Positions 16,079 through 60,743 are shown, counted from the stretch's first letter. The stretch is 64,000 nt of DNA from a virus (IMGVR_UViG_3300037475_000199:1-64000), one strand, 5' to 3'. Notes: a model not told the origin generated them from the sequence alone. A program made the numbers and translations.

Positions 16079-16082
16079 AAAT

Positions 16083-16177: not shown

Positions 16178-16182
16178 TTTAT

Positions 16183-33494: not shown

Positions 33495-33576
33495 TTAAAC
33501 ATATGTTTGAATCTGTTATATAGGTTCATGTTCCCAGAGAGGGAACTTTATAATTTAGACAACATGGAGAATGTTA

Positions 33577-34590
33577 ATGAAAAATTTTGAATTTTGTGTA
33601 TTTATTGGTCAATTTAGTCCATTCCATAATGGTCAATCTGCTATTCTTCAAGAAGCTTTAAATCAAGCAGAAACAGTTATTGTTGTCCTTGGTTCAGCTA
33701 AAAAGGCAAGAAACATTGAAGTTTCATGGAATGTCGAGCAACGCATTGAGATGATTAAGTCAACTCTTTCTGTCGAAGATCAGGTTCGTATTAAATTTGT
33801 TCCATTACGAGATCACATTTATAGTGATACAATTTGGGTAACTGAATTATTAGAAAAAATGACTCCCATTTTAAATGGATCAAAGAATGTTTCTTTGGTT
33901 TGTAGAGAAAAGTATAATAAAGAATATCTTAAATTGTTCCCGCAATGGGAATTAATCCCAGTTAAAACTACTGAGCCGCATCATGATGCGGAAGATATTA
34001 GACATCGTTATTTTACATATGATACATCTTATTCTCGTTTCGTTCACGAAAATGTAGCTAAGATGATGAAAGAATTTCAAGACACTCCAATCTTTCAAAC
34101 CTTAAAAAGTGACTTTGATTATGTCAAGAAATATAAGGCAGCATGGGAAGGCGCCCCATTTAAACCAATCTTTGTTACAGTAGATGCTGTAATTGTTAAA
34201 TCTGGACACGTACTTTTAGTGAAGCGTAAGGGTAATCCTGGTAAAGGGCAAATGGCATTACCAGGTGGATTTTTAGATCAAGAAGAGCTAATTGAAGATG
34301 CTGTTTTAAGAGAAGTAAAAGAAGAGACTGCTATTAAAATGTCTAAAGATGAACTTCGAGCCTGCATTACATATTCTGAAGTTTTTGATGCCAAAAATCG
34401 TTCATTGCGTGGGAGAACAATTACTCACGCATTTTTAATTGATTTAGGTTCCGGAACCCTACCAAAAGTAAAAGGTTCTGATGATGCAGAAAAAGCTTTT
34501 TGGCTTCCTTTGAACGAAGTCAAGGACCGTGAAGATGAATTTTTTGAAGATCATTTTCACATTATTAGTTCATTCACAAACAAACTATAA
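33577..34590 (+). CDS. natV: bifunctional NMN adenylyltransferase / Nudix hydrolase (NatV/NadM-Nudix type)
   Basis: N-terminal GQFSPFHNGQ is the nucleotidyltransferase (H/T)xGH-like motif. Nudix box GGFLDQEELIEDAVLREVKEETA. ATG 33577 after GGAGA. Confidence 0.6.
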   Translation: MKNFEFCVFIGQFSPFHNGQSAILQEALNQAETVIVVLGSAKKARNIEVSWNVEQRIEMIKSTLSVEDQVRIKFVPLRDHIYSDTIWVTELLEKMTPILNGSKNVSLVCREKYNKEYLKLFPQWELIPVKTTEPHHDAEDIRHRYFTYDTSYSRFVHENVAKMMKEFQDTPIFQTLKSDFDYVKKYKAAWEGAPFKPIFVTVDAVIVKSGHVLLVKRKGNPGKGQMALPGGFLDQEELIEDAVLREVKEETAIKMSKDELRACITYSEVFDAKNRSLRGRTITHAFLIDLGSGTLPKVKGSDDAEKAFWLPLNEVKDREDEFFEDHFHIISSFTNKL

Positions 34591-34633
34591 TCTTTTCAGA
34601 GAGAAAAGAAGTTAACAATACGGAGAGTACGAA

Positions 34634-36085
34634 ATGAGAACAGTAATCGCAAGAAAAGAAGACTTAGAACATAGCAACGTTACCGACACTGATAGTTACA
34701 AGTTTAGCCATTTTATTTTATATAAGAAGGCTGGCGTAACTAGAATGTTTAGTTATCTAGAGTCTCGTGGTGGTGAATTTGATGTTTCTACTATTTCAGC
34801 CCTACAAGTAGCATTACATAGATACATTGCAAAAGGATTTAAGAGAAAGGACATTGATCGTGCAGAAAAGCTTGCAGCTAAACATGGCGTCCCTTTCAAT
34901 CGTCCAGGATTTGAAGCCATGTATAACAAATATAATGGTAAGTTTCCAGTTAGAATTAGATCTATTCCTGAAGGTATGATAGTTCCAGTTTCAACTGCAC
35001 TATTAACTATTGAGTGTTGTGACGAAGATTGTTTTTGGATTGTCAATTGGCTAGAGACTTTATTATCTAGAATTTGGTATCCTTCTACTATTGCAATTGC
35101 AAGTCGTTCAGTCAAGAAACTTTGGAAGCACTTCTTAGATATGACTTCCGATAATACTGATCTCGAAATTGGATTTAAGCATCATGATTTCGGATCTAGA
35201 GGAGTAACCTGCTTTGAGCAAGCCGAATTGGGCGGTATGGCTCACTTGTTGAGCTTCTTTGGTTCTGATACTTTAGCGGGTGTTGAGCTTGCCAATTACT
35301 ACTATGATTGTGATATGTCAGGATTCTCGATTTGTGCTACTGAACATTCTACCATGACTATTTTTGGTCGTGCTGGTGAACGTCAAGCACTTATTGATTG
35401 GATTACTGAAACATTGGTTAATGTTCCAAATATTCCTGGTGTACCTAAAGTGTCTGCTTGTGTTGGTGACAGCTACAATATCTATGATTTTACTACACTA
35501 GTAAGTCGTGATGATGAGGTAAGAAACTTAATTGCTAATTCAGGGGGCACTTTAGTAGTAAGACCAGATAGCGGTAAACCATCTGAAGTTCTTCCTAAAA
35601 TATTGGAATTGTTTGAGCAAAACTTGCCATCAGGATCTATTACTGTTAATAGTAAGGGATACAAAGTTCTACCTTCATATTTGAGACTTATTTGGGGTGA
35701 TGGCATTAACCGTCGTTCAATGAAAGATATTCTTCAATTAGTAGTTGATCTTGGTTGGAGTGCATCTAATATTGCGTTAGGTTCTGGTGGCGGTTTATTG
35801 CAAGATGTTAATCGTGATACACAGAAGTTTGCTTTTAAGTGTTCGTTTGCTGAAGCAAAAGGCGTCTCAATTGATGTTCTTAAAGATCCAATCACTGATC
35901 CTGGAAAGAAATCAAAAGCGGGTCGCCTTGACACTATTAAGCTTCCAGATGGTGAAATTAAAACAGTCTCCATTGGAGTAAATGAAGAATGTCATCCTCT
36001 TAGCATTATGAATACTGTTTTTGAAATGGGAGATATTACTTATCACACTACGTTCGCTGAATGTAGAGACAGAATGGCGCTATGA
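34634..36085 (+). CDS. nadV: nicotinamide phosphoribosyltransferase (NAMPT/NadV)
   Basis: DTDSYKFSHF near the N-terminus matches the NAMPT DSYK motif. About 480 aa, the size of NadV. Confidence 0.65.
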   Translation: MRTVIARKEDLEHSNVTDTDSYKFSHFILYKKAGVTRMFSYLESRGGEFDVSTISALQVALHRYIAKGFKRKDIDRAEKLAAKHGVPFNRPGFEAMYNKYNGKFPVRIRSIPEGMIVPVSTALLTIECCDEDCFWIVNWLETLLSRIWYPSTIAIASRSVKKLWKHFLDMTSDNTDLEIGFKHHDFGSRGVTCFEQAELGGMAHLLSFFGSDTLAGVELANYYYDCDMSGFSICATEHSTMTIFGRAGERQALIDWITETLVNVPNIPGVPKVSACVGDSYNIYDFTTLVSRDDEVRNLIANSGGTLVVRPDSGKPSEVLPKILELFEQNLPSGSITVNSKGYKVLPSYLRLIWGDGINRRSMKDILQLVVDLGWSASNIALGSGGGLLQDVNRDTQKFAFKCSFAEAKGVSIDVLKDPITDPGKKSKAGRLDTIKLPDGEIKTVSIGVNEECHPLSIMNTVFEMGDITYHTTFAECRDRMAL

Positions 36086-37687: not shown

Positions 37688-37690
37688 CAA

Positions 37691-37970: not shown

Positions 37971-38885
37971 ATGTGTAATGTACTCGTAGGCACAGCTGTT
38001 GGTGATGCTTTAGGTGTTCCATTTGAAACTTTTTTGATAAATAATCCTCTTCTTTTAGATTGGGATGGAACAACTTATCTTGGAAGTAAATATCATGGTT
38101 TAGAACCAGGTCAATACTCAGATGACACTCAACTATCTATTTTGGTTGCTAAATCATTAATATTAAATTCTGGATTTAATCCAGACGATTTAGCTGCAAG
38201 ATATCAAGATTGGTTTTTTTCTGGCGTTGCACGAGGTTATGGTAAAACAACAAAGTTAGCTATGGAAGCTCTTAAAAGTGGTAAACATTGGAATGAATCT
38301 GGGATTGCCGGCTCTTTAGGTAATGGAACGGCTATGCGTGCAGCTCCATTTGGAGTTTACTTTAGAAATGATTTTAAACAATTAATTGCTGCAGTAAAAA
38401 TAGATTCAGCAATTACGCATGTTTCAGAAGATGCTGAAGCTGGAGCTATTGCTATTGCATTAACAGCAGCTTATGCCGTTAATCGTAACACTGAAAATCT
38501 TTTAGACAAAATTTGTGAAAATTTACCAGACTGTAAAGTTAAAAAAACAATTTCTAGTTTGGATGCATTAATTAACGCAGATAATATTACTCCTCCACAA
38601 GCTTTAAGAGTATTGGGGACAAAGGCTAATGTACAAGAAACTGTGCCCGCAGCATTATATTGTTTTCTGAAATTTGATAATTATCACGATGCTGTGCTTG
38701 CTGCAATTAAAGCTGGTGGTGATACCGACACTACTGCCGCAATAGTTGGAGCTTTATTTGGAGCCAGAGATGGAATCAAAAAGATAGATAGAAAATTTTA
38801 TTCGGTAGAAGATTTTGATAAATTAATAGAGTTAGATAGCCAGCTTTATAACAGATCTAATTCATTATTTTTTCCTAGAAACTAA
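37971..38885 (+). CDS. ADP-ribosylglycohydrolase (ARH/DraG family)
   Basis: N-terminal VLVGTAVGDALGVPFE matches the ARH GdAlG...E motif. C-terminal AGGDTDTTAAIVGALFGA is the metal-binding D-T-D region. Confidence 0.6.
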   Translation: MCNVLVGTAVGDALGVPFETFLINNPLLLDWDGTTYLGSKYHGLEPGQYSDDTQLSILVAKSLILNSGFNPDDLAARYQDWFFSGVARGYGKTTKLAMEALKSGKHWNESGIAGSLGNGTAMRAAPFGVYFRNDFKQLIAAVKIDSAITHVSEDAEAGAIAIALTAAYAVNRNTENLLDKICENLPDCKVKKTISSLDALINADNITPPQALRVLGTKANVQETVPAALYCFLKFDNYHDAVLAAIKAGGDTDTTAAIVGALFGARDGIKKIDRKFYSVEDFDKLIELDSQLYNRSNSLFFPRN

Positions 38886-38914: not shown

Positions 38915-40414
38915 ATGTATAAGAAATATCCGCCTAAAAAACCAGATAATTCATATCTTGTTAAAGTAAATGTTAAACATAATTGGTCAGACTATCAAAA
39001 AGCTATTTTTAAAAGTATAGCCAAAGATACAGGACATTTAATAGTAGAAGCTTATGCTGGTAGTTCAAAAACCACTTCAGCCATTGAAAGCTTTAAATAT
39101 GTGCCAAAAGGTAAAAAAACTTTAGCATTAGCATTTAATAAAATAATTCAAGAAGAACTAAGATCTCGTAGTCCCTCTTATATTGAAACTTTTACTTTTC
39201 ATAGTTTAGGATATAGGGCTATTAAACAACGTTTTGGTAATGTTGAGTTAAATGATCATAAAGTATTTGATATTGTTTCTGAAACTTTAGATAAAAAAAC
39301 AAATTACGATCTTATAAATAATATTTGTGATACTGTTGCTTATTGCAAATATACACTTTCAGATACGCCTAAGCAAATTGAAGATTTAATTCTTAATTTT
39401 GGAATTGATACTTGTGAAATGGATGACGATAAATTTATTAAATTAGTTATTAATACTTTAGGCAAAAGTAAATCTATAACTAATAAAATAGATTTTAATG
39501 ATATGTGTTGGTTGCCGTTTGTATATAATTTACCTTTAGGTCAGTATGACTATGTTTATGTAGATGAAGCACAAGATTTAAATAAATCTCAGTTAGTAAT
39601 GGCTAAAAAAGCCAGTAAAACTAATTCTGGTAGAATAATTGTTATTATGGATCCTAATCAAGCGCTTTATTCTTGGCGCGGCGCCGATAGTACAGTAGTT
39701 GATTCTATTAAAAAAGATGAGACAACTAAATCATTACAATTACCAATATCTTATCGTTGTCCTCGATCAGTTATTGATTTGGCTAAAAAATGGGTGCCAG
39801 ATATTACTTGCCCAGAAACAGCAATAGATGGTGAAGTGTCTGATATTACCACAGACAAAATGTATGACATTGTAAAGCCTGGTTCCTTTATTTTATCAAG
39901 AACTAATGCCCCAATGATTAAAATATGTATGCTTTTAATTAAGAGAGGCATTAAAGCTAACATTCGTGGCAGAGATGTTGGAAAACAACTCAACTACTTA
40001 ATAAAGAAATCTAAAAAGAAACAAATGGCTGCTTTCTTAAAATGGTTAGAATGCTGGAAAGATGAAGAAGTTGAAAAGTTGATATCTAAAAAAATAAATA
40101 CAGATAATGTATTAGATAGATATGAATGTTTAGTGTCTTTGTGTGAAGAACACAAGACATTAGAAGAAGTTTCTGAAAAGATAGATCATTTATTTGATGA
40201 TACTGATGAAAAAAATATAGTTATTCTATCTTCTGTTCATAGAGCAAAAGGATTAGAAAGAGATAATGTCTTCATTTTAAGATGGACTTTTAGGCAATGG
40301 TTAGATGATAAGTTAGAGTTTATTGAAAAACCAAATGAAGAGGCAAATATTGCTTATGTTGCTGCTACTAGAGCAAAGAAATCACTATATATTGTTAGAA
40401 AAAGTGTAGTTTGA
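38915..40414 (+). CDS. SF1 UvrD/PcrA-like DNA helicase
   Basis: Walker A AYAGSSKTT. DEAQD box in YVYVDEAQDL. Motif VI-like VHRAKGLERDNVFIL. Confidence 0.55.
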   Translation: MYKKYPPKKPDNSYLVKVNVKHNWSDYQKAIFKSIAKDTGHLIVEAYAGSSKTTSAIESFKYVPKGKKTLALAFNKIIQEELRSRSPSYIETFTFHSLGYRAIKQRFGNVELNDHKVFDIVSETLDKKTNYDLINNICDTVAYCKYTLSDTPKQIEDLILNFGIDTCEMDDDKFIKLVINTLGKSKSITNKIDFNDMCWLPFVYNLPLGQYDYVYVDEAQDLNKSQLVMAKKASKTNSGRIIVIMDPNQALYSWRGADSTVVDSIKKDETTKSLQLPISYRCPRSVIDLAKKWVPDITCPETAIDGEVSDITTDKMYDIVKPGSFILSRTNAPMIKICMLLIKRGIKANIRGRDVGKQLNYLIKKSKKKQMAAFLKWLECWKDEEVEKLISKKINTDNVLDRYECLVSLCEEHKTLEEVSEKIDHLFDDTDEKNIVILSSVHRAKGLERDNVFILRWTFRQWLDDKLEFIEKPNEEANIAYVAATRAKKSLYIVRKSVV

Positions 40415-46854: not shown

Positions 46855-46883
46855 TTGACAGGTGGGCTTGACACCCTTATATT
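46855..46883 (+). promoter_or_regulatory. sigma70-like promoter (TTGACA-17-TATATT)
   Basis: TTGACA at 46855-46860 and TATATT at 46878-46883. A second TTGACA lies at 46868. Upstream of ligA. Confidence 0.45.
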
Positions 46884-46954
46884 GTCCGAGCCCACAGCGG
46901 GTTTATTTTATAAATTCAACATTTAACTGCATTGCACTTACCCAAGTAATTCAC

Positions 46955-49168: not shown

Positions 49169-49720
49169 ATGATCAGTGGTCTTAAATATATTCCCAATTT
49201 TATATCTTTAGATAATGAATTATCTTTAATTCATACTATTGACAATCAAATTTGGTCTAAAGATCTTAAAAGAAGAACTCAGCATTATGGTTATAAGTAT
49301 GATTATACTAACAAATCAATTGATGAATCTTTATATTTAGGAAGAATACCTCAGTGGTTAGAAAAATATTGTTTTAAACTTTATGATAATAAGTTTTTTG
49401 AGAAGTTGCCGGACCAAGTAATTATAAATGAATATTTGCCTGGGCAAGGAATTAATAAACATGTTGATTGCGTTCCATGTTTTGATCATACCGTTGCCTC
49501 TTTAAGCTTAAATTCAAGTTGTGTTATGTGTTTTGAAAATATTTATACGCATAAAGTTGGTGAACTGGCATTAGCACCATTAAGTTTATTGGTTTTGTCG
49601 GGCGAATCTAGATTTGAATGGATGCATTCTATTCCAGCTAGAACAAGAGATGTAATTTCTGATCAGGTTTTACCTCGTGGAAGAAGAATCTCTTTGACAT
49701 TTAGAACTGTTTTGTTATAA
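49169..49720 (+). CDS. AlkB-family 2OG-Fe(II) dioxygenase
   Basis: INEYLPGQGINKHVDCVP gives the H-x-D motif. A later H (WMHSIP) and RRISLTFR give the R-x-S motif. Confidence 0.55.
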   Translation: MISGLKYIPNFISLDNELSLIHTIDNQIWSKDLKRRTQHYGYKYDYTNKSIDESLYLGRIPQWLEKYCFKLYDNKFFEKLPDQVIINEYLPGQGINKHVDCVPCFDHTVASLSLNSSCVMCFENIYTHKVGELALAPLSLLVLSGESRFEWMHSIPARTRDVISDQVLPRGRRISLTFRTVLL

Positions 49721-50628
49721 ATTTTCCAGTCTTGTTCCCAAATAGATATAATTTTATATCCCGCCTCTATTAAAATATTTTCTCTATTTATAGTTTGTGA
49801 GTATAATTCACCAAATGTTTTATTGACAAATTTGTTAAAATCATTTGAATCAAATTTTTTAGGATTACCATGCCAATAGTCTCCATAAAATTCATAAACT
49901 ATGTTTGTAATTGGATCGAGAGCATCTACAAAATATTTTTTATTATTTATATATGATTGCCTATATTCTTGTGGTATTTGCAATTGGTTTAACCAATCAA
50001 TTTCTTGTTTTGAAATTCTGTTAATACATTTTGGACAACCTTGTCCAGATAAATGGTTATTAGGAGTTTGATTAAATTCACCATGTAATAAACAAATTAT
50101 TGTGATTTTAGTTGCATGATTTTTATATATCACTTTTGAATAATCAAATTTATCGCCATGAATGTCATTTGCTTTTACATTAAATTCTTCTAATGTTAAT
50201 CGTATGCTTTCTGAATTTTTTAGTTTGCCACATTTAGGACAACCTTTTCCACATTTATGAAGATGAGGCGTTTGCAAAAATAAACCATGTATTGGACAAA
50301 TTATTTTAATATGTTTATTTACTGAAATGTATTCAACTTCATGATAATCATAAAAATTATTATGAATTAATATAAATTCCTCAATCACATCTTTTGTTGT
50401 AAGGGTTCTGTTTTTGCCTGATGTAATTTTACTACATAATGGGCAGCCCTGACCATTTAAATGATGATTAGGTGTTTTGTAAAATTTACCATGAATTTTA
50501 CAGATTATGATTACTTTGACGCTGGAACAAATATAAATAGTTTCTGAATAATCATAAATATTATTATATATGGCATTAGCTTTTTTTAAAAAATTTTCTT
50601 GTGTAAATGCTTTGTCCATTTTAACCAT
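49663..50628 (-). CDS. homing-endonuclease-like protein: triple Zn-ribbon repeat plus Vsr/DUF559-type PD-(D/E)xK nuclease domain (minus strand)
   Basis: The motif H-G-x-F-x-Q-TP-x-x-HL-x-GQGCP-x-C occurs three times. C-terminal YEFYGDYWHGNPKKF...ISIWEQDW compares with the Vsr-like YEFDGdyWH motif. Confidence 0.5.
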   Translation of the reverse strand: MVKMDKAFTQENFLKKANAIYNNIYDYSETIYICSSVKVIIICKIHGKFYKTPNHHLNGQGCPLCSKITSGKNRTLTTKDVIEEFILIHNNFYDYHEVEYISVNKHIKIICPIHGLFLQTPHLHKCGKGCPKCGKLKNSESIRLTLEEFNVKANDIHGDKFDYSKVIYKNHATKITIICLLHGEFNQTPNNHLSGQGCPKCINRISKQEIDWLNQLQIPQEYRQSYINNKKYFVDALDPITNIVYEFYGDYWHGNPKKFDSNDFNKFVNKTFGELYSQTINRENILIEAGYKIISIWEQDWKIYNKTVLNVKEILLPRGKT

Positions 50629-50642
50629 ATATCAGGCATATA

Positions 50643-51506
50643 ATGAATTTAAAAATTTTTAAATCCGAAATTGATAGCAGTATAAATATAGTAGAAAAAC
50701 AATTAGTTGGATTTCTTGAATCTCGTTTTGTAAGAAAATGTAATGATTATTTTATTGCATATTTATCTTCTCAAACGGGATGCAATCGTGGCTGTACGTT
50801 TTGTCATCTAACTGCAACAGGGCAAACTTCTTTTACAGATTCTAGCCATAATGATTTTATGGCTCAAGCCATTCAAATTTTTAAACACTATAGAAAACAA
50901 ACGGTCAATGCAAAGTATATGCATTATAATTTTATGGCTCGTGGCGAACCATTAGCAAATAAAATTTTGCTTGAATCGGGCGACGAGTTGTTAGTTAAAC
51001 TTGGGCAGGTTGCTAAGGAAGAGGGATTGCCAGCAAAGTTTAATATCTCAACTATTATGCCAATAAGCTTAAAGAAATCATTAGTTACAACATTTAACTA
51101 TGTTAATCCAACAATTTACTATTCTTTATATTCTACCGACAAAGAATGGCGAAAGAAATGGATGCCTGCAGCAATGGATACTACTGATGCACTGAATCTT
51201 TTGAAAGATTATCAAGATTTTTCTAAAAAAATTATTAAAATACATTATCCTTTTATCGCTGGTGAAAATGATTCAGTTGAAGAGATTAATAATGTTTGTG
51301 ATGCTATAGAAAAAGTCAAACTTAATTGTGAATTTAATTTAGTTCGTTATAATCCAGCTTCTCCAGATCAAGGAATAGAGTCTTCGCAAGAGGTTATTGC
51401 TCGTAATATAGAAATTATTTCCAATAGATTTCAATTTAATGGAAAGGTACAAATTATTCCGAGAGTAGGATTCGATGTAAAGGCATCGTGCGGAATGTTT
51501 GTTTAA
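50643..51506 (+). CDS. RlmN/Cfr-like radical-SAM RNA methyltransferase (short form)
   Basis: SSQTGCNRGCTFCHLTATGQ parallels the RlmN motif SSQVGCALECKFCSTAQQG. MARGEPLAN parallels MGMGEPLLN. A C-terminal Cys sits in KASCGMF. Confidence 0.5.
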   Translation: MNLKIFKSEIDSSINIVEKQLVGFLESRFVRKCNDYFIAYLSSQTGCNRGCTFCHLTATGQTSFTDSSHNDFMAQAIQIFKHYRKQTVNAKYMHYNFMARGEPLANKILLESGDELLVKLGQVAKEEGLPAKFNISTIMPISLKKSLVTTFNYVNPTIYYSLYSTDKEWRKKWMPAAMDTTDALNLLKDYQDFSKKIIKIHYPFIAGENDSVEEINNVCDAIEKVKLNCEFNLVRYNPASPDQGIESSQEVIARNIEIISNRFQFNGKVQIIPRVGFDVKASCGMFV

Positions 51507-52856: not shown

Positions 52857-53660
52857 ATGAATTTATCAGTTTTTAGATATCCAGGAGGAAAATCAAAATT
52901 AATTTCTATCTTAGGTTCTTATATTAATGATTTAAAAATTGAATCTTATAATGCATTTTGCGACGCATTTGTAGGAGGAGGTTCCGTTTTATTAAGTATA
53001 GCGGAAAAATATCCTAATATAAAACTGTATGCTAATGATAAAGATTTTGGAATAGCTTCCTTTTGGCAAATAGTATCAAGCAGTGATACTTTAAAATTGC
53101 AGGAGCTGCTAAAGCTAATGGAGCAGCCAGTTACGCTAGAACATTTTAATAAATTGCGCCAGGCAGTCCCATCAACCGATGTTGATGCTGCCTACCAAGC
53201 AATATTTTTTAACCGTACAACCTTTTCTGGAATTGCAAGCAGTGGTCCTATTGGTGGAAAAGAACAAAAATCAAAATACAAAGTAGATTGTAGATACAAT
53301 TTCACTAAATTAAAACAAAAAATATTAAAATGTAATAAGCTGTTGTCTGGTAGAACTGATATTTCTAATGTAAGCTTCTCAGAATATTCTGTTTTACATT
53401 CGGATATTCCTACTTATGTTGATCCGCCATATTATATAAAAGGAGATTCTCTTTATACAGAGAAAATGTCTCCACAGAATCATCAAGAGTTATTTGAGAT
53501 TTTAAATAATAAGAAAAATTGGGTATTGTCCTATGATGATCATCCTTTTATAAAAGACTTATATAAAGACCATACAATTATAGATTTAGCTGCTCGTTAT
53601 TGTATTAATGGAAATAAAGAGTCTTGGGAACATAAAAACGAATTAATAATCACATGTTAG
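52857..53660 (+). CDS. dam: Dam-type N6-adenine DNA methyltransferase
   Basis: VFRYPGGKSKL is the SAM-binding motif. VDPPYYIKG is motif IV (DPPY). Confidence 0.6.
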   Translation: MNLSVFRYPGGKSKLISILGSYINDLKIESYNAFCDAFVGGGSVLLSIAEKYPNIKLYANDKDFGIASFWQIVSSSDTLKLQELLKLMEQPVTLEHFNKLRQAVPSTDVDAAYQAIFFNRTTFSGIASSGPIGGKEQKSKYKVDCRYNFTKLKQKILKCNKLLSGRTDISNVSFSEYSVLHSDIPTYVDPPYYIKGDSLYTEKMSPQNHQELFEILNNKKNWVLSYDDHPFIKDLYKDHTIIDLAARYCINGNKESWEHKNELIITC

Positions 53661-53953
53661 ATATAATCACAATAATATTAGCTATATTTGGACTATCTTT
53701 TTTAATTAAAGATTCTAATGGTCCTTGGGATATTGTTTCTACGCTAAGAAACAAACTTATAACTAATAAATATGTTGGAGTTTTCTTCTTTAAATTTTTT
53801 GATTGTTACTTTTGTGTAGGTTGTCATTCAGGATGGATGATTTACTTGTTAACGCAGAAAGATTATCATCTCAATTTTTTAATTTGCTGGTCCCTTGCAG
53901 GCGGAATTATCAGCCTTATGTTGGACGCTGTCCTCACGAAACTTCATCAATAA
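53654..53953 (+). CDS. small membrane protein
   Basis: Three hydrophobic segments. Confidence 0.35.
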   Translation: MLDIITIILAIFGLSFLIKDSNGPWDIVSTLRNKLITNKYVGVFFFKFFDCYFCVGCHSGWMIYLLTQKDYHLNFLICWSLAGGIISLMLDAVLTKLHQ

Positions 53954-54184: not shown

Positions 54185-55690
54185 ATGGCAGAGAAATTAG
54201 TTGCTTATTCGGCAGGCGAAGAACCGTCTTTTCCTGGAGATTATGATGTAGTAAAAAGGACTACATTAAATTTTACAGACATTATTAACAACAACAATAA
54301 ATATTATAATTTAGAAGTTCAAGTTGCTAAGAATGGCAGTTCAAGAATTTTTACTCAGTATGGTCGAGTAGGCGGAACGGCAGCCAAAGAATATCGAGTA
54401 GCAGCTAATCAGTCTCATGCTGAAACTGAAGCCGAAAAAATTATCAAGTCCAAAACTAAAAAGGGCTATGTTGAAGTTAAATTGGTAAAAGCTGATATTG
54501 GGTCCGAAGCAGGCAAGGCTAAAGTTGATACTTCAGCTTCTAGCGTATCAGTTGATACACTTAAAAAGATGGGTGTTAAAGTTCAGGAAGCAGAAACCAG
54601 TAAATTACATCCTGAAATTGGAGATTTAGTTAGAACTTGGTTCGGCGTTACACAGGAATTTATTGAATTAAATCTTGACACTAAAAAGTGTCCATTAGGT
54701 CAATTATCGATTGATCAAATTGATAAAGCAAAAGAAATATTAGATGAAGCTCGTTTAATTATTCATGCATCTAAACCAGATGTATTAGAATTAAATAAAT
54801 TAACTAACTCTTATTATAGTAACATTCCTCATAACTTTGGTTATGGTAGAATTAATGCCGATGTACTTCGTTTAGACAACGATGATAAGGTAAATAAAGC
54901 TTTTGATATATTAGATGTTTTTGGTTCAGCTAAAAACGTTCAAAGTGTTATTTCAAAGAAATCGGCTGTAGACTCTCAGTATGCCACTTTAAATGCTGAT
55001 TTAAATTTTATTGATCCAAAAGATCCTATTTGGAAATGGATTGACACTATGTTGCATGAGACTAAAGCTAGCAATCATCATTTCTTAGGCAAATTAAAAA
55101 CTCATAAAATTTATAAAGTAAATCGTAAAGGTGAAGAACAGTATTTTCTTAAGAATGCAGAGAAGATTGCTAAAGAATGTGGAAAGCATGATCCTTCTCC
55201 AGTTTACTCTAAATTAGTTAAATCTCGCCCAGATGTATCAAAAGAGCTAAGAGATTTGTATGCAAGAGCTAACGTTTCTCCTGGTTGGCATGGAACTCGT
55301 AGAGCTAATATGATTGGCATTACTACTAAAGGTCTTTTAATTAGACCTTCAGGTGTAGTTCATGCTGGTTCAATGTATGGTGACGGTGTTTACTGGGCTA
55401 CTAATAGTACTAAGAGCATCAATTACTGTGATGTTCGTGGCTCATATTGGGCTGCTGGTACAAATAAAACGGCTTATTTATTCTTAGGTGATGTTGCTTT
55501 TGGTAATTATAAATATGCTAATGGCTCACAATATTATAATAGAAAGAATATTTCGCCAGCACATTCTGTTTTTGCTCAAGGCGGGAAGAGCGGAGTATTG
55601 AATGACGAAATTATTACTTATACTCCATCGGGTCCAGAGCAACAACATTGTTTAAGATATATTATTGAATTCGAAACACAAGCAAAATGA
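54185..55690 (+). CDS. PARP-like ADP-ribosyltransferase (WGR domain plus PARP catalytic domain; H-Y-D variant)
   Basis: WGR-like YYNLEVQ...QYGRVGG. Catalytic WHGTRRANMIGI...GSMYGDGVYWA carries the H-G-T motif and Tyr. YLFLGDVAFGNY aligns with PARP1 LLLGEVALG, with Asp in place of the catalytic Glu. Confidence 0.6.
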   Translation: MAEKLVAYSAGEEPSFPGDYDVVKRTTLNFTDIINNNNKYYNLEVQVAKNGSSRIFTQYGRVGGTAAKEYRVAANQSHAETEAEKIIKSKTKKGYVEVKLVKADIGSEAGKAKVDTSASSVSVDTLKKMGVKVQEAETSKLHPEIGDLVRTWFGVTQEFIELNLDTKKCPLGQLSIDQIDKAKEILDEARLIIHASKPDVLELNKLTNSYYSNIPHNFGYGRINADVLRLDNDDKVNKAFDILDVFGSAKNVQSVISKKSAVDSQYATLNADLNFIDPKDPIWKWIDTMLHETKASNHHFLGKLKTHKIYKVNRKGEEQYFLKNAEKIAKECGKHDPSPVYSKLVKSRPDVSKELRDLYARANVSPGWHGTRRANMIGITTKGLLIRPSGVVHAGSMYGDGVYWATNSTKSINYCDVRGSYWAAGTNKTAYLFLGDVAFGNYKYANGSQYYNRKNISPAHSVFAQGGKSGVLNDEIITYTPSGPEQQHCLRYIIEFETQAK

Positions 55691-56949
55691 AAATTGGATT
55701 ATTAACATTTCCCAGATTAACCAATAATTTTGCTGAGGGTAGACCAACTCTACTTGCACAAAAGCTGGAACCATCAGTATTATTTTTATCTCCATCTTAT
55801 GGAGAATTAGTCTTTATAGAAGACAACGTTCCTAGAGATGATATTGATTTATACTTATGTTCTGTATATACTCGTGGTTTAAGTGAGTTTATTACGTTTT
55901 CAAAGGCAGTAGGTAGAGACAAAGTAATTGCCGGAGGATATCATCCAACAGCAATGCCAGAAGAAATGCTGCCTTACGCTCATAAAGTAGTTACTGGTTA
56001 TTGTGACAACATCGATCAAATCATTGATGGTCCCACTGGAGTATCTAAAGGTTCTTTTGGTTTTACTAAGATGCGAAGAGATCTTGTTGATATGAAGTCA
56101 ATGACTCAAATTTATCCGGATATTTATCCAGATGATATTAGTGGTTCAATGGTTTCTTCTGTCGGATGTCCTTATGATTGTGACTTTTGCTCAACTCCAT
56201 CTATGTCTGGCAGAAAAATGCGAACAGCCAGCTTAGATTATGTAGCAGAAGAAATTGAAGACCTATTAAAGCATAATGTTACTACTGTTTTTATTAGAGA
56301 TGAAAGTTTTGCAACTCATCCAATGATGGCTGAAGTAGCTCCTTTATTTAAAGATAAATTTAAAGTTTTATATTCATTTGGAACCTCTGGTGTCTTTGCT
56401 AAAAAGCCAGAATTACTTAAAGTCTTAAAAGAGAGCGGCTGGCATTCTCTTAATATTGGATTAGAAGACGTTGGGGTAAAATATAGAAAAAATCTTAACT
56501 TAAAAATGGGTGTTGAAAATATTCATCGTAATGGTCTTCAACACGTAATGTCATTCATTGTAAATGATGATGGAAAATCTTTAGAAGAAGCTAAAGCAAA
56601 CTATAATTCTTTATATGATGCCTTTATAGATCTTAAACCATTGCAAGTTTGCGCGAACTTTTTGATGCCTTTTCCAGGAACGCAATTATGGCAATCATAT
56701 AAAGATCGTATGTCAGAAAAAGATTTTGATAATTTTGATTCAAAAACACCTATTTTTACTAAAGGTCCGATGCATGAATGGCACAAGAGGATGTTAGTTG
56801 CTGTACAACTCAAGTATTATTTAAGTGATTCTTATAATAAGAATGTAAGAAACTTTAATTGTGGAGATACGCTTAATCTTAGGATGAATGAGTTGCAAAA
56901 AGAATTTGGTTTAGATAATTTGTCGTGGGATAAACTATTAGAAATATGA
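55687..56949 (+). CDS. B12-binding-domain radical-SAM enzyme
   Basis: CPYDCDFC is the CxxxCxxC motif. N-terminal VIAGGYHPTAMPEEM resembles the class B cobalamin-binding region. ATGA overlap with the PARP gene indicates translational coupling. Confidence 0.55.
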   Translation: MKIGLLTFPRLTNNFAEGRPTLLAQKLEPSVLFLSPSYGELVFIEDNVPRDDIDLYLCSVYTRGLSEFITFSKAVGRDKVIAGGYHPTAMPEEMLPYAHKVVTGYCDNIDQIIDGPTGVSKGSFGFTKMRRDLVDMKSMTQIYPDIYPDDISGSMVSSVGCPYDCDFCSTPSMSGRKMRTASLDYVAEEIEDLLKHNVTTVFIRDESFATHPMMAEVAPLFKDKFKVLYSFGTSGVFAKKPELLKVLKESGWHSLNIGLEDVGVKYRKNLNLKMGVENIHRNGLQHVMSFIVNDDGKSLEEAKANYNSLYDAFIDLKPLQVCANFLMPFPGTQLWQSYKDRMSEKDFDNFDSKTPIFTKGPMHEWHKRMLVAVQLKYYLSDSYNKNVRNFNCGDTLNLRMNELQKEFGLDNLSWDKLLEI

Positions 56950-57136: not shown

Positions 57137-57361
57137 ATGGGAATATTTATCTTTAATGATTCTGTGGTTTTTCATAAGCTAACTTCTCTTAAAATAATCA
57201 ATAAAGTTTTAAGGGGATTAGAAGCCAAATTTCCAATTGAAGTATATCCCAATTATGCAACTGAAAAAGATTTCTATAAATATACATTTAAAGAATCTAT
57301 TACTGATGAAACCTTAAAGAGGGCTTACGAATATTTAAGTAAGTTTAATAAAAATGCATAA
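57137..57361 (+). CDS. small hypothetical protein
   Basis: ORF only. Confidence 0.3.
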   Translation: MGIFIFNDSVVFHKLTSLKIINKVLRGLEAKFPIEVYPNYATEKDFYKYTFKESITDETLKRAYEYLSKFNKNA

Positions 57362-57626
57362 AAAGAAAACAAAGAAAAAATCTGCTTATAAAATTATGAA
57401 AGTATTTGATTGTCAAGATATGCCAGAAAATATTCGTCAAATGTTCTTTGAACTGTGTGAATCTGGCAATGATTGTTATGTTGATTGGACCATTAATGGT
57501 ACGACAGACGAATATATAACAGATGAAGAAAAAGCAATTGATGCTTGGTTGATATCTAATGGAGCGAATGGCGCTCCATCTGAAGATGATTCAGGAGAAG
57601 ATATATTAATTAGGCATTGGTGGTAA
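57354..57626 (+). CDS. small hypothetical protein
   Basis: The ORF overlaps the upstream stop. Confidence 0.3.
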   Translation: MHKKKTKKKSAYKIMKVFDCQDMPENIRQMFFELCESGNDCYVDWTINGTTDEYITDEEKAIDAWLISNGANGAPSEDDSGEDILIRHWW

Positions 57627-57627
57627 T

Positions 57628-58371
57628 ATGTTTAATAAATTTAATAAAATTTTAAACCTAATAAAACAAAGTTCTTCTCCATTTATTTTGTGTGCCATCG
57701 CTGCTGCATGTGATAATAAAGGAGAAATCCCTATATCGACATCTTTTTATAAACAAATAATAACTAAATATGGACCAAATATATCTAAAGGTAAAACTCC
57801 CCAAAATACTTTAAGCACATTATTACAATATCAGACTGGACTTGGAAGAACTATATTTCGTCGTAGGTCAAATAATTTAGAGTTAATAGATAAATCATAT
57901 TTGTCCACATTAAAAGAAGTTGCGCTTAGTTATTTGCCACCAACTTCTTTAAACATTAATAATGTTAAGCCTTTTATATCACTAACGACTCAAGCGCCGC
58001 AACCTTTAATTGATGAATTTAAAGTTCCTAAACAACATTTACAATCATACTTAAATGAAGGAATTTATATTGGAGTTGATCAAGAAACAAAAGATGGCAA
58101 AATTCAAATTAAAATAGGAAGATCTAATGATATTAAATCTCGTTTTAAAAGTTTAAAGCCGTATAAACTTGGAGCAATAGTGTCTGCTGACTTTTCAATC
58201 AAAGAAGAAAACAAATTTAAAAATAAATATTTGGAATTTAAACATGACGGCGAATATTTTCTTGTACCAAAAGATATATATAAAGAAATTATATCTTTAG
58301 ATGTTTCAAAAGAATATTCGCCTATTTCTTTAAAAAAGAAAATAGAAGATTTAATTGGAAAGAAAATATAA
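57628..58371 (+). CDS. hypothetical protein
   Basis: ORF only. Confidence 0.4.
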   Translation: MFNKFNKILNLIKQSSSPFILCAIAAACDNKGEIPISTSFYKQIITKYGPNISKGKTPQNTLSTLLQYQTGLGRTIFRRRSNNLELIDKSYLSTLKEVALSYLPPTSLNINNVKPFISLTTQAPQPLIDEFKVPKQHLQSYLNEGIYIGVDQETKDGKIQIKIGRSNDIKSRFKSLKPYKLGAIVSADFSIKEENKFKNKYLEFKHDGEYFLVPKDIYKEIISLDVSKEYSPISLKKKIEDLIGKKI

Positions 58372-58388: not shown

Positions 58389-58865
58389 ATGATTACTATA
58401 ATTCAGGGAGATTTAATAGAAGCTAAAGAGAAATATTTGATCCACCAAACAAATTGTGTTTCGCATTTCGCGGCAGGTATTGCACAAACTATTTTTTCTA
58501 AATTTCCATATGCTAATGTTTATGCTAATAGAATAGAAGAAGACTTACCTGGACATATAGTTATTTGTGGTAACGGTAAAGATCAAAGATACATTGTTAA
58601 TTTAATGGGTCAGTTCTATCCTGGTGGATATTCTGAATCAGACATTGACAATGAAAAAGCACGACAACAATATTTCCACAAAGGATTACTTAGATTGGCT
58701 AAAATTCCTAATTTAGAGAGTGTTGCTTTTAATTTTAAAATTGGATGCGGAATTGGCGGAGGTAATTGGAATTGGTATAAAGGTACTCTTGAAAACTTTG
58801 CTAATTATATTGATAGTACACAAGGAGCTAAAACTTTTATCTATCAAAGAGAAGGTGACGTTTAA
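58389..58865 (+). CDS. macrodomain (ADP-ribose binding/hydrolase) protein
   Basis: ITIIQGDLIEAKEKYLIHQTNCVSHFAAGIAQ parallels the macro signature GDIT...IVNAAN..L.GGgGV. Confidence 0.55.
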   Translation: MITIIQGDLIEAKEKYLIHQTNCVSHFAAGIAQTIFSKFPYANVYANRIEEDLPGHIVICGNGKDQRYIVNLMGQFYPGGYSESDIDNEKARQQYFHKGLLRLAKIPNLESVAFNFKIGCGIGGGNWNWYKGTLENFANYIDSTQGAKTFIYQREGDV

Positions 58866-59197
58866 TGAAAAACGGATTAATAATTGATGATTATGGTACT
58901 CAAAAATGGTATAAAGAAGATCTTTTACATAAAGAAGACGGTCCTGCCGTAATCTGGAAAAGTGGAGATAAAGAATACCGCATTAATGGACAACTTCACA
59001 GAGAAGATGGTCCTGCTATTGAGTATAATAATTTTCATATGTGGTATTTTAATGATAAACTTCATAGAGTTGAAGGCGCCGCCGTCATTGACATTTTTAA
59101 TGATGAAAAAGAGTATTGGTATAAAGGAAAATCAGTTGAGGACATAGAAACTGACGAGGATTTTAAAAATTTCATCAAATTCAAGGCGTTTTGGTAA
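58865..59197 (+). CDS. MORN-repeat protein with KFKAFW tail
   Basis: LLHKEDGPA and QLHREDGPA repeats. C-terminus DEDFKNFIKFKAFW. Confidence 0.55.
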   Translation: MKNGLIIDDYGTQKWYKEDLLHKEDGPAVIWKSGDKEYRINGQLHREDGPAIEYNNFHMWYFNDKLHRVEGAAVIDIFNDEKEYWYKGKSVEDIETDEDFKNFIKFKAFW

Positions 59198-59199
59198 AC

Positions 59200-59658
59200 A
59201 TGACAATTAAGTTTTATACTTCTGCCGAACCATATGGATATTTAAATAATTTTAAAAAGTCGCCTATGTTTGTGTATGGTCGTTGGTGGAAAAATGTTGA
59301 ATCAGCTTATCAAGCACAAAAGACAATTATTCCAGAAGAATATAATAAAATTTGGTTAGCTAAACATCCAAGAGAAGCAAGAAATTTAGGACAAATAGTT
59401 CATATTAGAAAAGATTGGGATGAAATAAAAGTCTCAGTTATGTATGAATGTGTTTTAGCAAAATTTGTTCAAAATAAAGATTTTAGAAATAGATTGTTTT
59501 CTACTGGTGATGAAGAAATTGCAGAAGATTCTCCAATTGATTCATTTTGGGGATTAGGTCCAAATGGTGACGGATTAAATCATTTGGGTAAAATTCTAAT
59601 GAAAGTTAGAAGTATTTTAAGAACAAATGAATATTATGAATTATTTCAAGGATTATAA
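59200..59658 (+). CDS. NADAR (DUF1768/YbiA-like) domain protein, copy 2
   Basis: FYTSAEPYGYLNNF...VESAYQAQKT...FWGLG...LGKILMKVR matches the NADAR signature. ATG 59200, or TTG 59191. Confidence 0.6.
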   Translation: MTIKFYTSAEPYGYLNNFKKSPMFVYGRWWKNVESAYQAQKTIIPEEYNKIWLAKHPREARNLGQIVHIRKDWDEIKVSVMYECVLAKFVQNKDFRNRLFSTGDEEIAEDSPIDSFWGLGPNGDGLNHLGKILMKVRSILRTNEYYELFQGL

Positions 59659-60227: not shown

Positions 60228-60743
60228 ATGATTCAATTACAAGATGTAGTATTAAATGTTGTTAAAGATTTTGTGAAGAATGAAGTATTATTTACTGGTC
60301 TTGATGTAAGTAATGAAGTTAAAAAGACTTTACCTTTTGCTAAACATAAAGATGTTAGAGATTTGGTTAGAGCTGCTTGGCAATCTGATATTTCTCCACA
60401 AAACTATGATCGTACTCCAATTAAAGTAGTTTTAGTTGATGGTACAGTAGCCGATGCTTTGTTGTATCATCCATTATCTGCTTCTTGGGATTTAGATAAT
60501 CTTTATACTCAACAACAACGTAGCCAAACACTTAATAAAGTGGGCGTTACACAAACGGCACCTGTTACAGTAGCACCAGTAACTTCAGTAAGTGGTACTC
60601 TATCAAAAGCTGATGATGGAACTTTAACAGTAGTTACAGCTCCTGTAAACCCTTTGTCGATCACAGCTGCGCCAGCAGTTAATCCAAGAGATCTTTGGGC
60701 TCAAATGTGGCAAAATCAACCTTCATTATTTCCACGTAAATAA
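60228..60743 (+). CDS. hypothetical protein with A/P/V/T-rich C-terminal low-complexity tail
   Basis: TAPVTVAPVTSVSG...TAPVNPLSITAAPAVNP. Confidence 0.4.
   Translation: MIQLQDVVLNVVKDFVKNEVLFTGLDVSNEVKKTLPFAKHKDVRDLVRAAWQSDISPQNYDRTPIKVVLVDGTVADALLYHPLSASWDLDNLYTQQQRSQTLNKVGVTQTAPVTVAPVTSVSGTLSKADDGTLTVVTAPVNPLSITAAPAVNPRDLWAQMWQNQPSLFPRK

Follow-up and report, generated by a model that had tools for sequence, protein, structure and literature searches.

A PARP-macrodomain-NADAR backbone of huge phages and its probably accessory radical-SAM gene, a member of a rare family apparently linked with NAD salvage

The locus at positions 54185 to 56949 of the viral DNA IMGVR_UViG_3300037475_000199 (64,000 nucleotides, the whole stretch analysed, hereafter called the window) probably combines two separable things, a core encoding a PARP-like ADP-ribosyltransferase, a macrodomain protein and a NADAR protein, and an accessory radical-SAM (rSAM) gene from a family linked with NAD salvage. 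The source is a huge, tRNA-rich, lytic-type phage, and the locus lies in its NAD/ADP-ribose accessory region. Much of the conflict between phages and bacteria centres on NAD+ and ADP-ribose, and three phage routes of NAD reconstitution have been described since 2024, none of them by radical chemistry. The new lead is the apparent link of the rSAM family with NAD metabolism. In bacteria with small genomes, members are repeatedly found inside NrtR/PncA/PncB/NMNAT/NadE operons, and huge phages appear to have captured such genes; the pattern suggests a previously undescribed pyridine-nucleotide reaction.

The PARP2/3-like protein (501 amino acids; 54185..55690, plus strand) had three Pfam matches above the gathering scores, WGR at residues 26-98 (PF05406, E 1.3e-16), PARP_reg at 139-264 (PF02877, E 3.1e-18) and the PARP catalytic domain at 286-468 (PF00644, E 2.6e-18, 66.7 bits against a cut-off of 26.7), in agreement with the WGR and PARP-like assignment made earlier from the sequence alone. 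The WGR and helical regulatory (HD) domains are both N-terminal to the ART domain. Comparison with structures of PARP1, PARP2 and PARP3 (phmmer) gave E-values down to 2e-26. In the alignment with human PARP1 (4opx/4dqy) the phage motif WHGT corresponded to WHGS (His862), GVYWA to GIYFA (Tyr896), SINYC to SANYC (Tyr907) and LGDVAFGN to LGEVALGN (Glu988), i.e. to residues H369, Y403, Y414 and D436 of the phage protein. All four were invariant in 121 sequences, consisting of the phage PARP and its 120 closest homolog clusters, confirming the proposed H-Y-D core with LGDVAFG in place of LGEVALG. The triad is H369-Y403-D436 and not H-Y-E, the His and Tyr being kept and Asp436 occupying the Glu988 site. 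The triad Glu of PARPs is required for efficient chain elongation, and because Asp436 replaces it, synthesis of poly(ADP-ribose) by the phage enzyme should not be assumed. Despite Asp436, the protein is, judged by its domains, a member of the PARP family.

The phage PARP matched PHROG 23333, and PADLOC had no informative family for it. More than 120 PARP clusters had at least 68 % identity with it, compared with approximately 26 rSAM clusters at 75 % identity or above, and it belongs to a large clade of uncultured huge phages in which the H-Y-D triad is fixed. WGR-PARPs of phages and bacteria are already on record, among them one viral protein with Asp for Glu (PMC4245714). The clade-1-like PARPs of Herpetosiphon aurantiacus, Cellulophaga phage phi4:1, Aeromonas phage Aeh1 and Xanthomonas phage XacN1 share with it the layout of WGR, (regulatory) and catalytic domains and the His and Tyr of the triad, and, except in the bacterium, are likewise phage-encoded. 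However, identity was only 27.6 % with the XacN1 and 23.7 % with the phi4:1 protein (tblastn; both annotated as PARP), and just 23-32 % with the phage PARPs of INPHARED. The PARP neighbours in XacN1 and phi4:1 are also different (a vWA protein; a DNA ligase and a CCA-adding-type enzyme), whereas the conserved synteny with macrodomain and NADAR genes and the variable slot with UV-repair genes belong to the huge-phage clade.

The rSAM gene (420 amino acids; 55687..56949, plus strand) starts within the end of the PARP gene, the stop and start codons overlapping by 4 nt as ATGA (junction sequence ...gcaaaATGAaaatt), as had been noted before. The same 4-nt overlap was present in 23 of the 111 adjacent same-strand gene pairs of the window (21 %), and an overlap of some kind in 46 of the 111. 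The ATGA overlap of PARP and rSAM is not distinctive, and adjacency with such an overlap does not define a system in a genome in which every fifth gene pair has it. Among the PARP-rSAM loci the overlap was found only in the window and in one other contig (L003), the remainder having gaps of 150-760 bp, one of which contains a pyrimidine-dimer glycosylase gene. The translational coupling proposed in the sequence-only reading thus keeps its overlap in two contigs but lacks it elsewhere, and is commonplace in this genome. Scans for promoters and terminators near the pair found as many as expected from shuffled sequence and were not informative.

The 17 PARP-anchored loci from related huge phages (L185-L201) included 15 with downstream sequence. 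A macrodomain gene was located 3' of PARP in all 15, and a NADAR gene followed the macrodomain in 12 of the 14 informative loci. In the related phages the backbone runs from PARP through a variable slot to a DarG-like macrodomain and NADAR. It is preceded throughout the phage clade by a small hydrophobic ORF of 99 amino acids (53654..53953, plus strand), found by tblastn just 5' of PARP in L003-L006, L012 and L101 and in 15 of the 17 PARP-anchored loci, and closed by a conserved ORF of 171 amino acids (60228..60743, plus strand), found by tblastn 3' of macrodomain/NADAR in 13 of 15 informative loci and absent from L188 and L194; neither ORF had a Pfam match.

The slot contained rSAM in 3 of the 15 loci, a Pyr_excise-like (pyrimidine-dimer) glycosylase in seven and UvdE in one, UV-repair genes being found there more often than rSAM. 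Among the matches listed, PARP and rSAM were adjacent in approximately seven distinct related huge-phage loci, and the PARP-linked rSAMs formed one terminal monophyletic branch. The rSAM homologs outside this phage clade (35-69 % identity) were never next to PARP, and none below approximately 75 % identity had a PARP neighbour, among the matches listed. The rSAM is probably an accessory gene of the slot in a minority of related phages and not a dedicated PARP partner; co-conservation of the pair ended at one terminal clade. Of the suggested writer/modifier/eraser set, the syntenic PARP, macrodomain and NADAR in a region with an NAD/ADP-ribose theme hold up; the rSAM as modifier is not supported, given its minority occurrence and its salvage context. 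A 492-aa ORF overlapping the rSAM start in the phage-like L205 was considered as a divergent PARP and rejected (BLASTP E 0.97; only a weak match to HATPase_c_3). A tblastn search with the rSAM against 50,697 GenBank phage records gave no match, nor did megablast with the PARP-rSAM pair. No description of the PARP-rSAM architecture was found in the literature searched, consistent with the earlier statement that pairing of a PARP with a B12-type rSAM was undescribed.

Both predicted erasers were found downstream, as first noted. The macrodomain protein (58389..58865, plus strand), a predicted ADP-ribose hydrolase, resembled DarG (PADLOC DarG, 1.3e-8; PHROG 335, 1.2e-19); the Pfam Macro match was just below the cut-off (E 5e-4, 20.4 bits against 22), the NCBIfam DarG model gave 2.7e-5 (23.6 bits against a cut-off of 250) and the best PDB matches had E 0.02-0.1. 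The NADAR-domain protein (59191..59658, plus strand; Pfam NADAR, 1.2e-33) was YbiA-like, matching YbiA (2b3w) at 1e-21 and the characterised DNA-acting NADAR (8bau) at 4e-7. The macrodomain gene is parted from rSAM by a T5orf172/MUG113-domain gene (57628..58371, plus strand; Pfam T5orf172 4.9e-4, MUG113 3.4e-4), probably a mobile or selfish insertion. It is missing from L004-L006 and L101, where the macrodomain gene begins 6 nt after rSAM.

The window further encodes a bifunctional NMNAT-Nudix protein (33571-34590, plus strand; Pfam; NCBIfam NMNAT/Nudix, 9e-108) and a NAMPT (34634-36085, plus strand; Pfam), which by these matches form a NARP2-type pair for NAD reconstitution (33571..36085) as defined in PMC13464706, and an ADP-ribosylglycohydrolase (ARH; 37971..38885, plus strand; Pfam ADP_ribosyl_GH, 2.4e-68). 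The NAD/ADP-ribose set of the window consists of NAMPT, NMNAT-Nudix, ARH, two NADARs and the macrodomain. For the NARP1-3 pathways, no radical-SAM enzyme is mentioned in the NARP literature searched, and the word "radical" is absent from the viral NAD-ADPr survey and the NARP3 paper. A Dam methylase and a Cfr/RlmN-like rSAM are also encoded nearby in the phage genome.

The rSAM protein had a Pfam Radical_SAM match above the cut-off (PF04055, residues 156-301, E 3.1e-13) and a weak B12-binding match at 51-105 (E 0.003, 17.9 bits against a cut-off of 32.1). Its N-terminal Rossmann-like domain (approximately 1-125) carries an invariant GGYH-T motif. The CxxxCxxC motif (C161/C165/C168) was invariant in 17 aligned members and kept in 119 of 120 homolog clusters. 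An AlphaFold model (pLDDT 87) had a two-domain class-B-like fold that matched many rSAM structures, with AprD4 and MgmA tied as the closest solved relatives and CysS, TsrM, TokK, MiaB and RimO also close; the fold comparison did not separate dehydratase from methylase. AprD4 was the best sequence match, at just 17-18 % identity, and the score with the NCBIfam AprD4 model NF033070 was 40.5 bits against a cut-off of 500, so the protein is not a member of that family. The top NCBIfam matches were B12-binding/rSAM families, all scoring far below cut-off, and PADLOC and PHROG offered no informative family. AprD4 is a diol dehydratase without bound cobalamin (PMC12931638) that functions with a reductase partner (PMC5461906). 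The fold ties this cobalamin-free enzyme with a methylase, and cobalamin use and methylation by the phage rSAM are therefore unproven; of the cobalamin-dependent rSAM named in the sequence-only reading, the radical-SAM domain and class-B-like N-terminal domain were recovered and the cobalamin and methylase typing was not established. The family is rare and unnamed, with 28 representative clusters among 1.84 billion.

Among the matches listed, 13 of the 14 non-PARP, apparently cellular contexts of rSAM were among NAD-salvage genes (L007, L008, L009, L010, L011, L013, L014, L015, L018, L102, L106, L181 and L204), the exception being L202; the tally overstates independence, because several of the NAD-linked contexts are from closely related Saccharimonadales. 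Neighbours, assigned by NCBIfam, were NrtR, PncA, PncB, NadM-type NMNAT, NadE, Nudix proteins and, often, a GDP-fucose-synthase-like (Fcl-like) reductase. The gene order was NrtR-PncA-PncB-rSAM with divergent SDR and NMNAT in L204, NadE-Prs-ARH-NrtR-PncB-rSAM-nucleoside hydrolase-NadK-like in L181, Nudix/NrtR-rSAM-SDR-NMNAT in L008, L010 and L102, PncB-rSAM in L014, NadE-rSAM in L106 and L018, and rSAM-NMNAT-isochorismatase in L011. These resemble NrtR/NAD salvage operons of the Preiss-Handler type (PncA/PncB/NadD-or-NadM/NadE) with rSAM homologs embedded among NrtR, PncA, PncB, NMNAT, NadE, Prs and Nudix genes. We know of no radical-SAM enzyme in the canonical NAD salvage pathway. The link was absent from the literature searched and from curated family libraries, and nothing relevant emerged in that literature on radical-SAM enzymes together with NrtR, nicotinamidase or NAD biosynthesis, or with PARP, macrodomain or NADAR proteins.

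Five other phage-like rSAM contexts had no adjoining NAD genes, and the role in phages may therefore differ from that in cells. The phage rSAMs were without SDR and small NMNAT partners. A search for the Fcl-like SDR in IMG/VR gave only generic SDRs (22-27 % identity), none on PARP-rSAM contigs, and all-vs-all BLASTP of the flanking genes found no conserved small partner across contexts except in near-identical genomes. Alignment-based rSAM scans of viral and metagenome contigs gave mostly generic rSAMs (20-28 % identity), with L019 and L099-L108 usable, and there may be loci beyond the matches listed.

For the core, the WGR domain would sense DNA breaks and the helical domain would then release autoinhibition of the PARP, which, with NAD+ as donor, would modify protein or DNA ends, probably with single ADP-ribose units or short oligomers. 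Removal of this mark, and/or of ADP-ribose placed on DNA by DarT-type host enzymes, would fall to the macrodomain and NADAR hydrolases. The UV-damage repair genes in the slot between writer and erasers point to a role in DNA repair or DNA protection. It is possible, if somewhat unlikely, that the macrodomain and NADAR serve only to free phage DNA of ADP-ribose added by DarT-type host enzymes, with PARP acting separately in host takeover or repair. The best macrodomain matches were DarG models, guanine ADP-ribosylation is reversed by NADARs in DarT-NADAR systems (PMC11543638 and PMC11125620), and macrodomains and NADARs co-occur widely in large phages without PARP (PMC9503650), but the synteny with PARP is strict across 15 loci and the NADAR is nearer to YbiA than to the DNA-acting enzyme. 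DarTG and DarT-NADAR likewise have a writer syntenic with a DarG-like macrodomain and a NADAR eraser; their writer is DarT, whereas that of the phage is a PARP-family protein with WGR and helical domains, and the phage genes are unlike DarTG in that a variable slot separates them and the genome is that of a lytic-type huge phage.

That all four genes form one dedicated system, with the rSAM altering the ADP-ribose mark or the PARP target on DNA, RNA or protein, appears quite improbable. The order PARP-rSAM-macrodomain-NADAR in the seven or so loci listed, the 6-nt spacing of rSAM and macrodomain in L004-L006 and L101, the ATGA overlap in the window and L003 and the common NAD/ADP-ribose theme argue for it. 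However, 12 of the 15 PARP-anchored relatives retain PARP, macrodomain and NADAR without rSAM, unrelated genes occupy the same slot in other phages, the overlap is neither conserved nor rare in the genome, the ORF 5' of rSAM in L205 is no PARP, and beyond the clade rSAM homologs adjoin small-molecule NAD-salvage enzymes and never PARP or another ART. A role in counter-defence, by destroying or altering NAD-derived immune signals or toxins (e.g. cyclic ADP-ribose isomers) or by making a NADase-resistant NAD analogue, is also unlikely; it would draw on the family's link with NAD metabolism, the NAD/ADP-ribose set of the window, one phage-like homolog less than 4 kb from a Tad6-family gene and the well-established NAD-centred counter-defence of phages, but neither PADLOC nor PHROG gave an informative rSAM match and the cellular homologs are in housekeeping-type salvage operons and not in conflict islands. 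Such an enzyme would complement the NAMPT/NMNAT genes of the phage. Very improbable is a class B methyltransferase that depends on cobalamin, modifies nucleic acid or protein (anti-restriction or translation-modifying) and lies beside NAD genes by chance. MgmA is as close in fold as AprD4, with CysS, TsrM, TokK, MiaB and RimO also close, the best NCBIfam matches are B12-binding/rSAM families, and the Dam methylase and Cfr/RlmN-like rSAM are near. Against it, the protein is below every family cut-off for class B methylases (MgmA/QCMT, TsrM, TokK, CysS) and the gathering score for B12-binding, its gene context offers no clue to a methylation substrate, and 13 of the 14 apparently cellular contexts listed are NAD/ADPR clusters, several under NrtR. 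Many of the hosts are bacteria that we take to be small-genome Saccharibacteria, in which cobalamin synthesis is generally absent.

For the rSAM as an accessory gene, dropped into the variable slot in a minority phage lineage, we infer substrates, chemistry and role from the observed domains and contexts. The C161/C165/C168 [4Fe-4S] cluster would cleave SAM to a 5'-deoxyadenosyl radical, whose target for hydrogen abstraction would be a small molecule of the pyridine-nucleotide or ADP-ribose type. Dehydration of a ribose diol in the manner of AprD4 would most likely follow, with the SDR finishing the deoxygenation in cells, as the pairing of rSAM and SDR there parallels AprD4/AprD3, a radical-SAM 1,2-diol dehydratase with an NADPH-dependent reductase in sugar C3' deoxygenation. 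In contrast to AprD4, found in aminoglycoside biosynthesis, the rSAM context is NAD salvage, and rSAM in the phages lacks an SDR partner. The phage enzyme would act on the NAD/ADPR pool beside NAMPT and NMNAT, not on the PARP product. Tentatively, the family may be an unrecognised NAD-metabolism enzyme that reshapes the ribose or base of a pyridine nucleotide or of ADP-ribose, working in cells with Fcl-like ketoreductase and NadM partners under NrtR, giving a deoxy- or otherwise altered NAD-family metabolite in Saccharibacteria-type bacteria, and captured by phages. If so, the phage rSAM could reshape the NAD/ADP-ribose pool, e.g. towards a NADase-resistant cofactor, the loss of immune signals made from ADPR or a changed donor for the neighbouring PARP. 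The position of rSAM exactly between writer and erasers in the seven or so loci listed is a point against its being accessory, and it may have a PARP-related role. The H-Y-D PARP clade with its macrodomain/NADAR erasers and UV-repair genes offers a tractable prokaryotic-virus model of reversible, DNA-damage-linked ADP-ribosylation.

The variable slot of the window also holds two small ORFs of 74 and 90 amino acids (57137..57626, plus strand; no meaningful Pfam match), both of which are present in L003, the 90-aa ORF recurring in the slot of L186 and L194. Between macrodomain and NADAR is a repeat protein of 110 amino acids (58865..59197, plus strand). It had been labelled a MORN protein, a label that neither Pfam nor PHROG profiles supported. 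Among the related loci it was detected in L003 alone, and it has paralogs within the window at 7250-7507 and 37433-37909.

The window contains an ORF of 501 amino acids at 54185-55690 (+), hereafter called PARP, and an ORF of 420 amino acids at 55687-56949 (+), a radical-SAM protein hereafter called rSAM, both of which appear in the ORF listing at exactly the coordinates proposed in a sequence-only reading. As that reading had suggested, PARP has WGR (residues 26-98, E 1.3e-16) and PARP catalytic (residues 286-468, E 2.6e-18) domains, with a PARP_reg domain between them (residues 139-264, E 3.1e-18), all Pfam matches being above the gathering scores. Among PDB sequences, phmmer matched it to PARP1, PARP2 and PARP3, with E down to 2e-26. 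In the alignment to PARP1 the phage WHGT corresponds to WHGS (His862), GVYWA to GIYFA (Tyr896), SINYC to SANYC (Tyr907) and LGDVAFGN to LGEVALGN (Glu988), so the H-Y-D triad had been identified correctly. No variation at H369, Y403, Y414 or D436 is seen across the query and its 120 closest homolog clusters, and D436 is thus a fixed character of the clade rather than an occasional substitution. This Asp is likely to restrict chain elongation, to an extent suggested by mutagenesis of PARP1 E988. The layout is that of PARP2/3, and by analogy with characterised WGR-PARPs the protein is most likely a DNA-break-responsive ADP-ribosyltransferase (PMC4245714). WGR-PARPs of phages and bacteria, including one viral Asp variant, have already been documented (PMC4245714). 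PARP thus adds a new protein to a type already known, and is notable for its conserved synteny.

The stop codon of PARP and the start codon of rSAM overlap by 4 nt (junction sequence ...gcaaaATGAaaatt), in which the ATGA interpreted earlier as translational coupling can be read. The same overlap is present in L003 (L-numbers designate other contigs or loci with homologs of PARP or rSAM), but the other PARP-rSAM loci have a gap of 150-760 bp, which in L005 encodes a 162-aa pyrimidine-dimer-glycosylase-like protein. Of the 111 pairs of neighbouring same-strand genes in the window, 23 overlap by 4 nt and 46 overlap to some extent, and the PARP/rSAM overlap therefore reflects the style of the genome and is not a signature of partnership.

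Co-conservation was approached from both rSAM-anchored and PARP-anchored loci. Among the matches listed, rSAM homologs at least 75-77 % identical are found directly downstream of PARP in L003, L004, L005, L006/L101, L012 and L100. In L004-L006 and L101 the macrodomain gene (macro) begins 6 nt after rSAM, followed by NADAR where the locus is long enough, L004 ending inside macro. Two small ORFs and a T5orf172/MUG113-domain protein are inserted between rSAM and macro in the window. The latter (57628-58371) is found at this position only in this phage, is probably mobile or selfish, and has about 100 N-terminal residues resembling the N-terminus of a 623-aa protein in L185, located in the variable stretch between PARP and macro (the slot).

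In all 15 PARP-anchored loci with usable downstream sequence a small ORF precedes PARP, which is followed by a variable slot of 0.15-2.2 kb and then by macro, with NADAR in 12 of 14 and a conserved 171-aa ORF in 13 of 15. The slot contains rSAM in three of the 15, a Pyr_excise-like pyrimidine-dimer DNA glycosylase of about 160 aa in seven (L189, L190, L191, L192, L196, L198 and L200; Pfam 1.8e-6) and a UvdE endonuclease in one (L186, 2e-49), its other contents being Cfr/RlmN-like rSAM, HNH-like proteins and unknowns. Neither a Pyr_excise-like glycosylase nor UvdE was found anywhere in the window. A large protein database gives the same picture, with upwards of 120 clusters for PARP (68 % identity or above) against only about 26 for rSAM (75 % or above). 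With rSAM present in so few PARP-anchored loci, and no PARP beside rSAM homologs in the contexts examined outside the PARP clade, the pair is not the dedicated one that had been proposed. The Cfr/RlmN-like rSAM in the slot of L193/L199, after PARP, differs from the type encoded at 50643-51506 in the window.

The macrodomain (58389-58865) and NADAR (59191-59658, Pfam E 1.2e-33) of the sequence-only reading are real, whereas the 'MORN' label given to 58865-59197 has no profile support in Pfam or PHROG. The macro matches DarG models of PADLOC (1.3e-8) and, below the family cut-off, NCBIfam (2.7e-5), and the NADAR is YbiA-like (1e-21). A second NADAR-domain gene at 12095-12592 (Pfam 3.3e-49) shares 33 % identity with this paralog. 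Co-occurrence of macro and NADAR in large phages is already known (PMC9503650). What the two erasers remove may be the mark made by the phage itself, DNA ADP-ribosylation of the DarT type made by the host, or both. The earlier observation was confirmed, and its interpretation borne out in part only. Two components can be told apart: PARP, DarG-like macro and NADAR form a conserved phage module with a variable slot favouring UV-damage repair genes, while rSAM is accessory and belongs to a family linked with pyridine-nucleotide salvage.

The most informative result of the analysis concerns the neighbours of those rSAM family members that lie outside the PARP clade. In a neighbour-joining tree the PARP-linked rSAMs form one terminal monophyletic branch, to which adjacency with PARP is limited; it is nested in the family, the deeper branches of which are almost all NAD-linked. 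Many of the contigs taken as cellular are labelled Saccharibacteria, Saccharimonadales or Patescibacteria, and others carry FtsH, EF-Tu, SmpB, ThrRS or PFOR. In 13 of 14 cellular-looking contexts (the exception being L202) rSAM lies among NAD genes, a tally that includes several close relatives of one another and hence fewer independent lineages. The partners recognised by NCBIfam are a GDP-L-fucose-synthase-like sugar-nucleotide 4-ketoreductase/epimerase (SDR, 7e-34), a small archaeal-type NMNAT (2e-15) and an ADPR-responsive NrtR regulator (4e-51). The NMNAT sequence carries GRFQPLHPGH and SSATEIR motifs, which are NadM-type signatures. L204 has NMNAT and SDR on one side and divergent NrtR, PncA, PncB and rSAM. 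NMNAT and SDR are likewise divergent from rSAM in L007, while the order is Nudix, rSAM, SDR, NMNAT, NrtR in L010 and L102, and isochorismatase, then further on NrtR, rSAM, SDR, NMNAT in L008. In L011 rSAM is followed by NMNAT and isochorismatase (1.5e-36). It is preceded by NrtR and, further on, Nudix in L013 and L015, by NrtR and one unknown gene in L009, by NAPRTase (7e-51) in L014 and by NadE (8e-68) in L106. In L018 it follows a 1222-aa NadE-type protein with CN_hydrolase and NAD_synthase matches, the N-terminal part of which looks by eye like a candidate NMNAT. L181 contains NadE, Prs, DUF1152, ARH, NrtR, PncB, a NadA-C-terminal-like fragment, rSAM, nucleoside hydrolase and a NAD-kinase-like gene. 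The fragment is a 91-aa ORF (7724-7999) between PncB and rSAM, matching quinolinate synthase NadA (NCBIfam 5.5e-8) in its C-terminal ~36 residues only.

In the five phage-like contexts without PARP (L179, L183, L203, L205 and L107/L108) the neighbours are mostly unknown. A 492-aa ORF overlapping the rSAM start in L205 was considered as a PARP and is not one. The L107/L108 homologs (~35 % identity) are the most divergent full-length members examined, and are followed by a dual-specificity-phosphatase-like protein with an HCxxGxxRS motif.

The Radical_SAM domain of the rSAM protein (residues 156-301) is matched by Pfam with E 3.1e-13, and the B12-binding match is weak (E 0.003, 17.9 bits versus a cut-off of 32.1). 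In a word-indexed search 177 clusters (90 % identity) match it at E 1e-3 or better. In an exhaustive HMM search only 28 of 1.84 billion representatives reach E 1e-30, beyond which scores drop to about 100 bits, a value shared by generic B12-rSAMs; judged by these scores, the rSAM family is small and discrete. No family in NCBIfam, PHROG or PADLOC claims rSAM, and its NAD association was not found in the searched literature or in any curated family library. In the superfamily of class-B-like rSAMs the protein is a new variant that may carry out new chemistry, and the main interest lies in this rSAM-NAD lead and not in the proposed PARP-rSAM system.

The radical-SAM 1,2-diol dehydratase AprD4 deoxygenates a sugar together with the NADPH-dependent reductase AprD3 (PMC5461906), and binds no cobalamin although a Rossmann-like domain is present (PMC12931638). 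Class-B-like architecture, which was confirmed for rSAM, consequently does not establish the cobalamin dependence that the sequence-only reading had assumed; neither this nor methyl transfer was confirmed, and a methylating enzyme is one possible alternative. Action directly on the PARP product is another, to which the adjacency of the two genes lends support within one narrow clade and not outside it. Radical dehydration of a ribose diol is favoured, since in cells rSAM is paired with a ketoreductase, as AprD4 is with its reductase AprD3. The substrate of this dehydration would be a small molecule of the NAD family, and in cells the reaction would be completed to deoxygenation. No SDR partner of rSAM was found in the phage, where the enzyme may work by itself on the NAD/ADPR pool, which the phage manages in other respects with NAMPT, NMNAT-Nudix, ARH, macro and NADAR.

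The source is a huge phage, and its set of NAD/ADP-ribose genes is unusually rich. The G+C content of the window is ~30 %, nearly all genes are on the same strand, 17 tRNA genes are present, with EF-Ts amid tRNA genes (25098-26006, Pfam EF_TS 2.8e-45), and the closest relatives among the matches listed, which come from IMG/VR and metagenomes, are contigs 267-498 kb long. In 50,697 GenBank phage records there was no close relative of the PARP-rSAM region and no rSAM homolog; the phage PARPs matched there (XacN1, Cellulophaga phi4:1 and others) are only 23-32 % identical and have no rSAM neighbour. At 33571-36085, ~20 kb upstream of PARP, NAMPT (Pfam NAPRTase 5e-36 and NAMPT_N) immediately follows a gene for a bifunctional NMNAT-Nudix (NCBIfam 9e-108), and the two make up a NARP2-type NAD-reconstitution pair; NAD reconstitution by phages (NARP1-3) is known (PMC13464706). 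An ADP-ribosylglycohydrolase (ARH, 37971-38885, Pfam 2.4e-68) is followed by a UvrD-type helicase (38915-40414) and preceded by clustered repeat-protein genes (37433-37909) paralogous to the 'MORN-like' ORF. Between NAMPT and ARH, the gene for a Pol-beta-type nucleotidyltransferase (Pfam 3.6e-6) and a 147-aa ORF of no known family overlap (36357-37420) and may form a two-gene nucleotidyltransferase module. A DNA ligase that depends on NAD (46862-48823; OB, HhH and BRCT domains) adds to the enzymes of DNA repair that consume NAD in the PARP region.

Among the tRNA genes, that at 16082-16178 was left without assigned identity by ARAGORN, with a four-base anticodon (agtc), and could be frameshift-suppressor-like or intron-bearing. 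One of the few minus-strand genes, 49663-50628 (-), encodes repeated treble-clef zinc-finger modules (DUF4379, DUF723) and, in its C-terminal region, has weak restriction-endonuclease-like matches; these features suggest a homing endonuclease. Another radical-SAM gene (50643-51506), which is Cfr/RlmN-like (NCBIfam 3.5e-18, PHROG 27142 4e-96), is kept in related huge phages and has 42-45 % identity with genes of the jumbo phages 201phi2-1, Phabio and Psa21 and of Brevundimonas phages.
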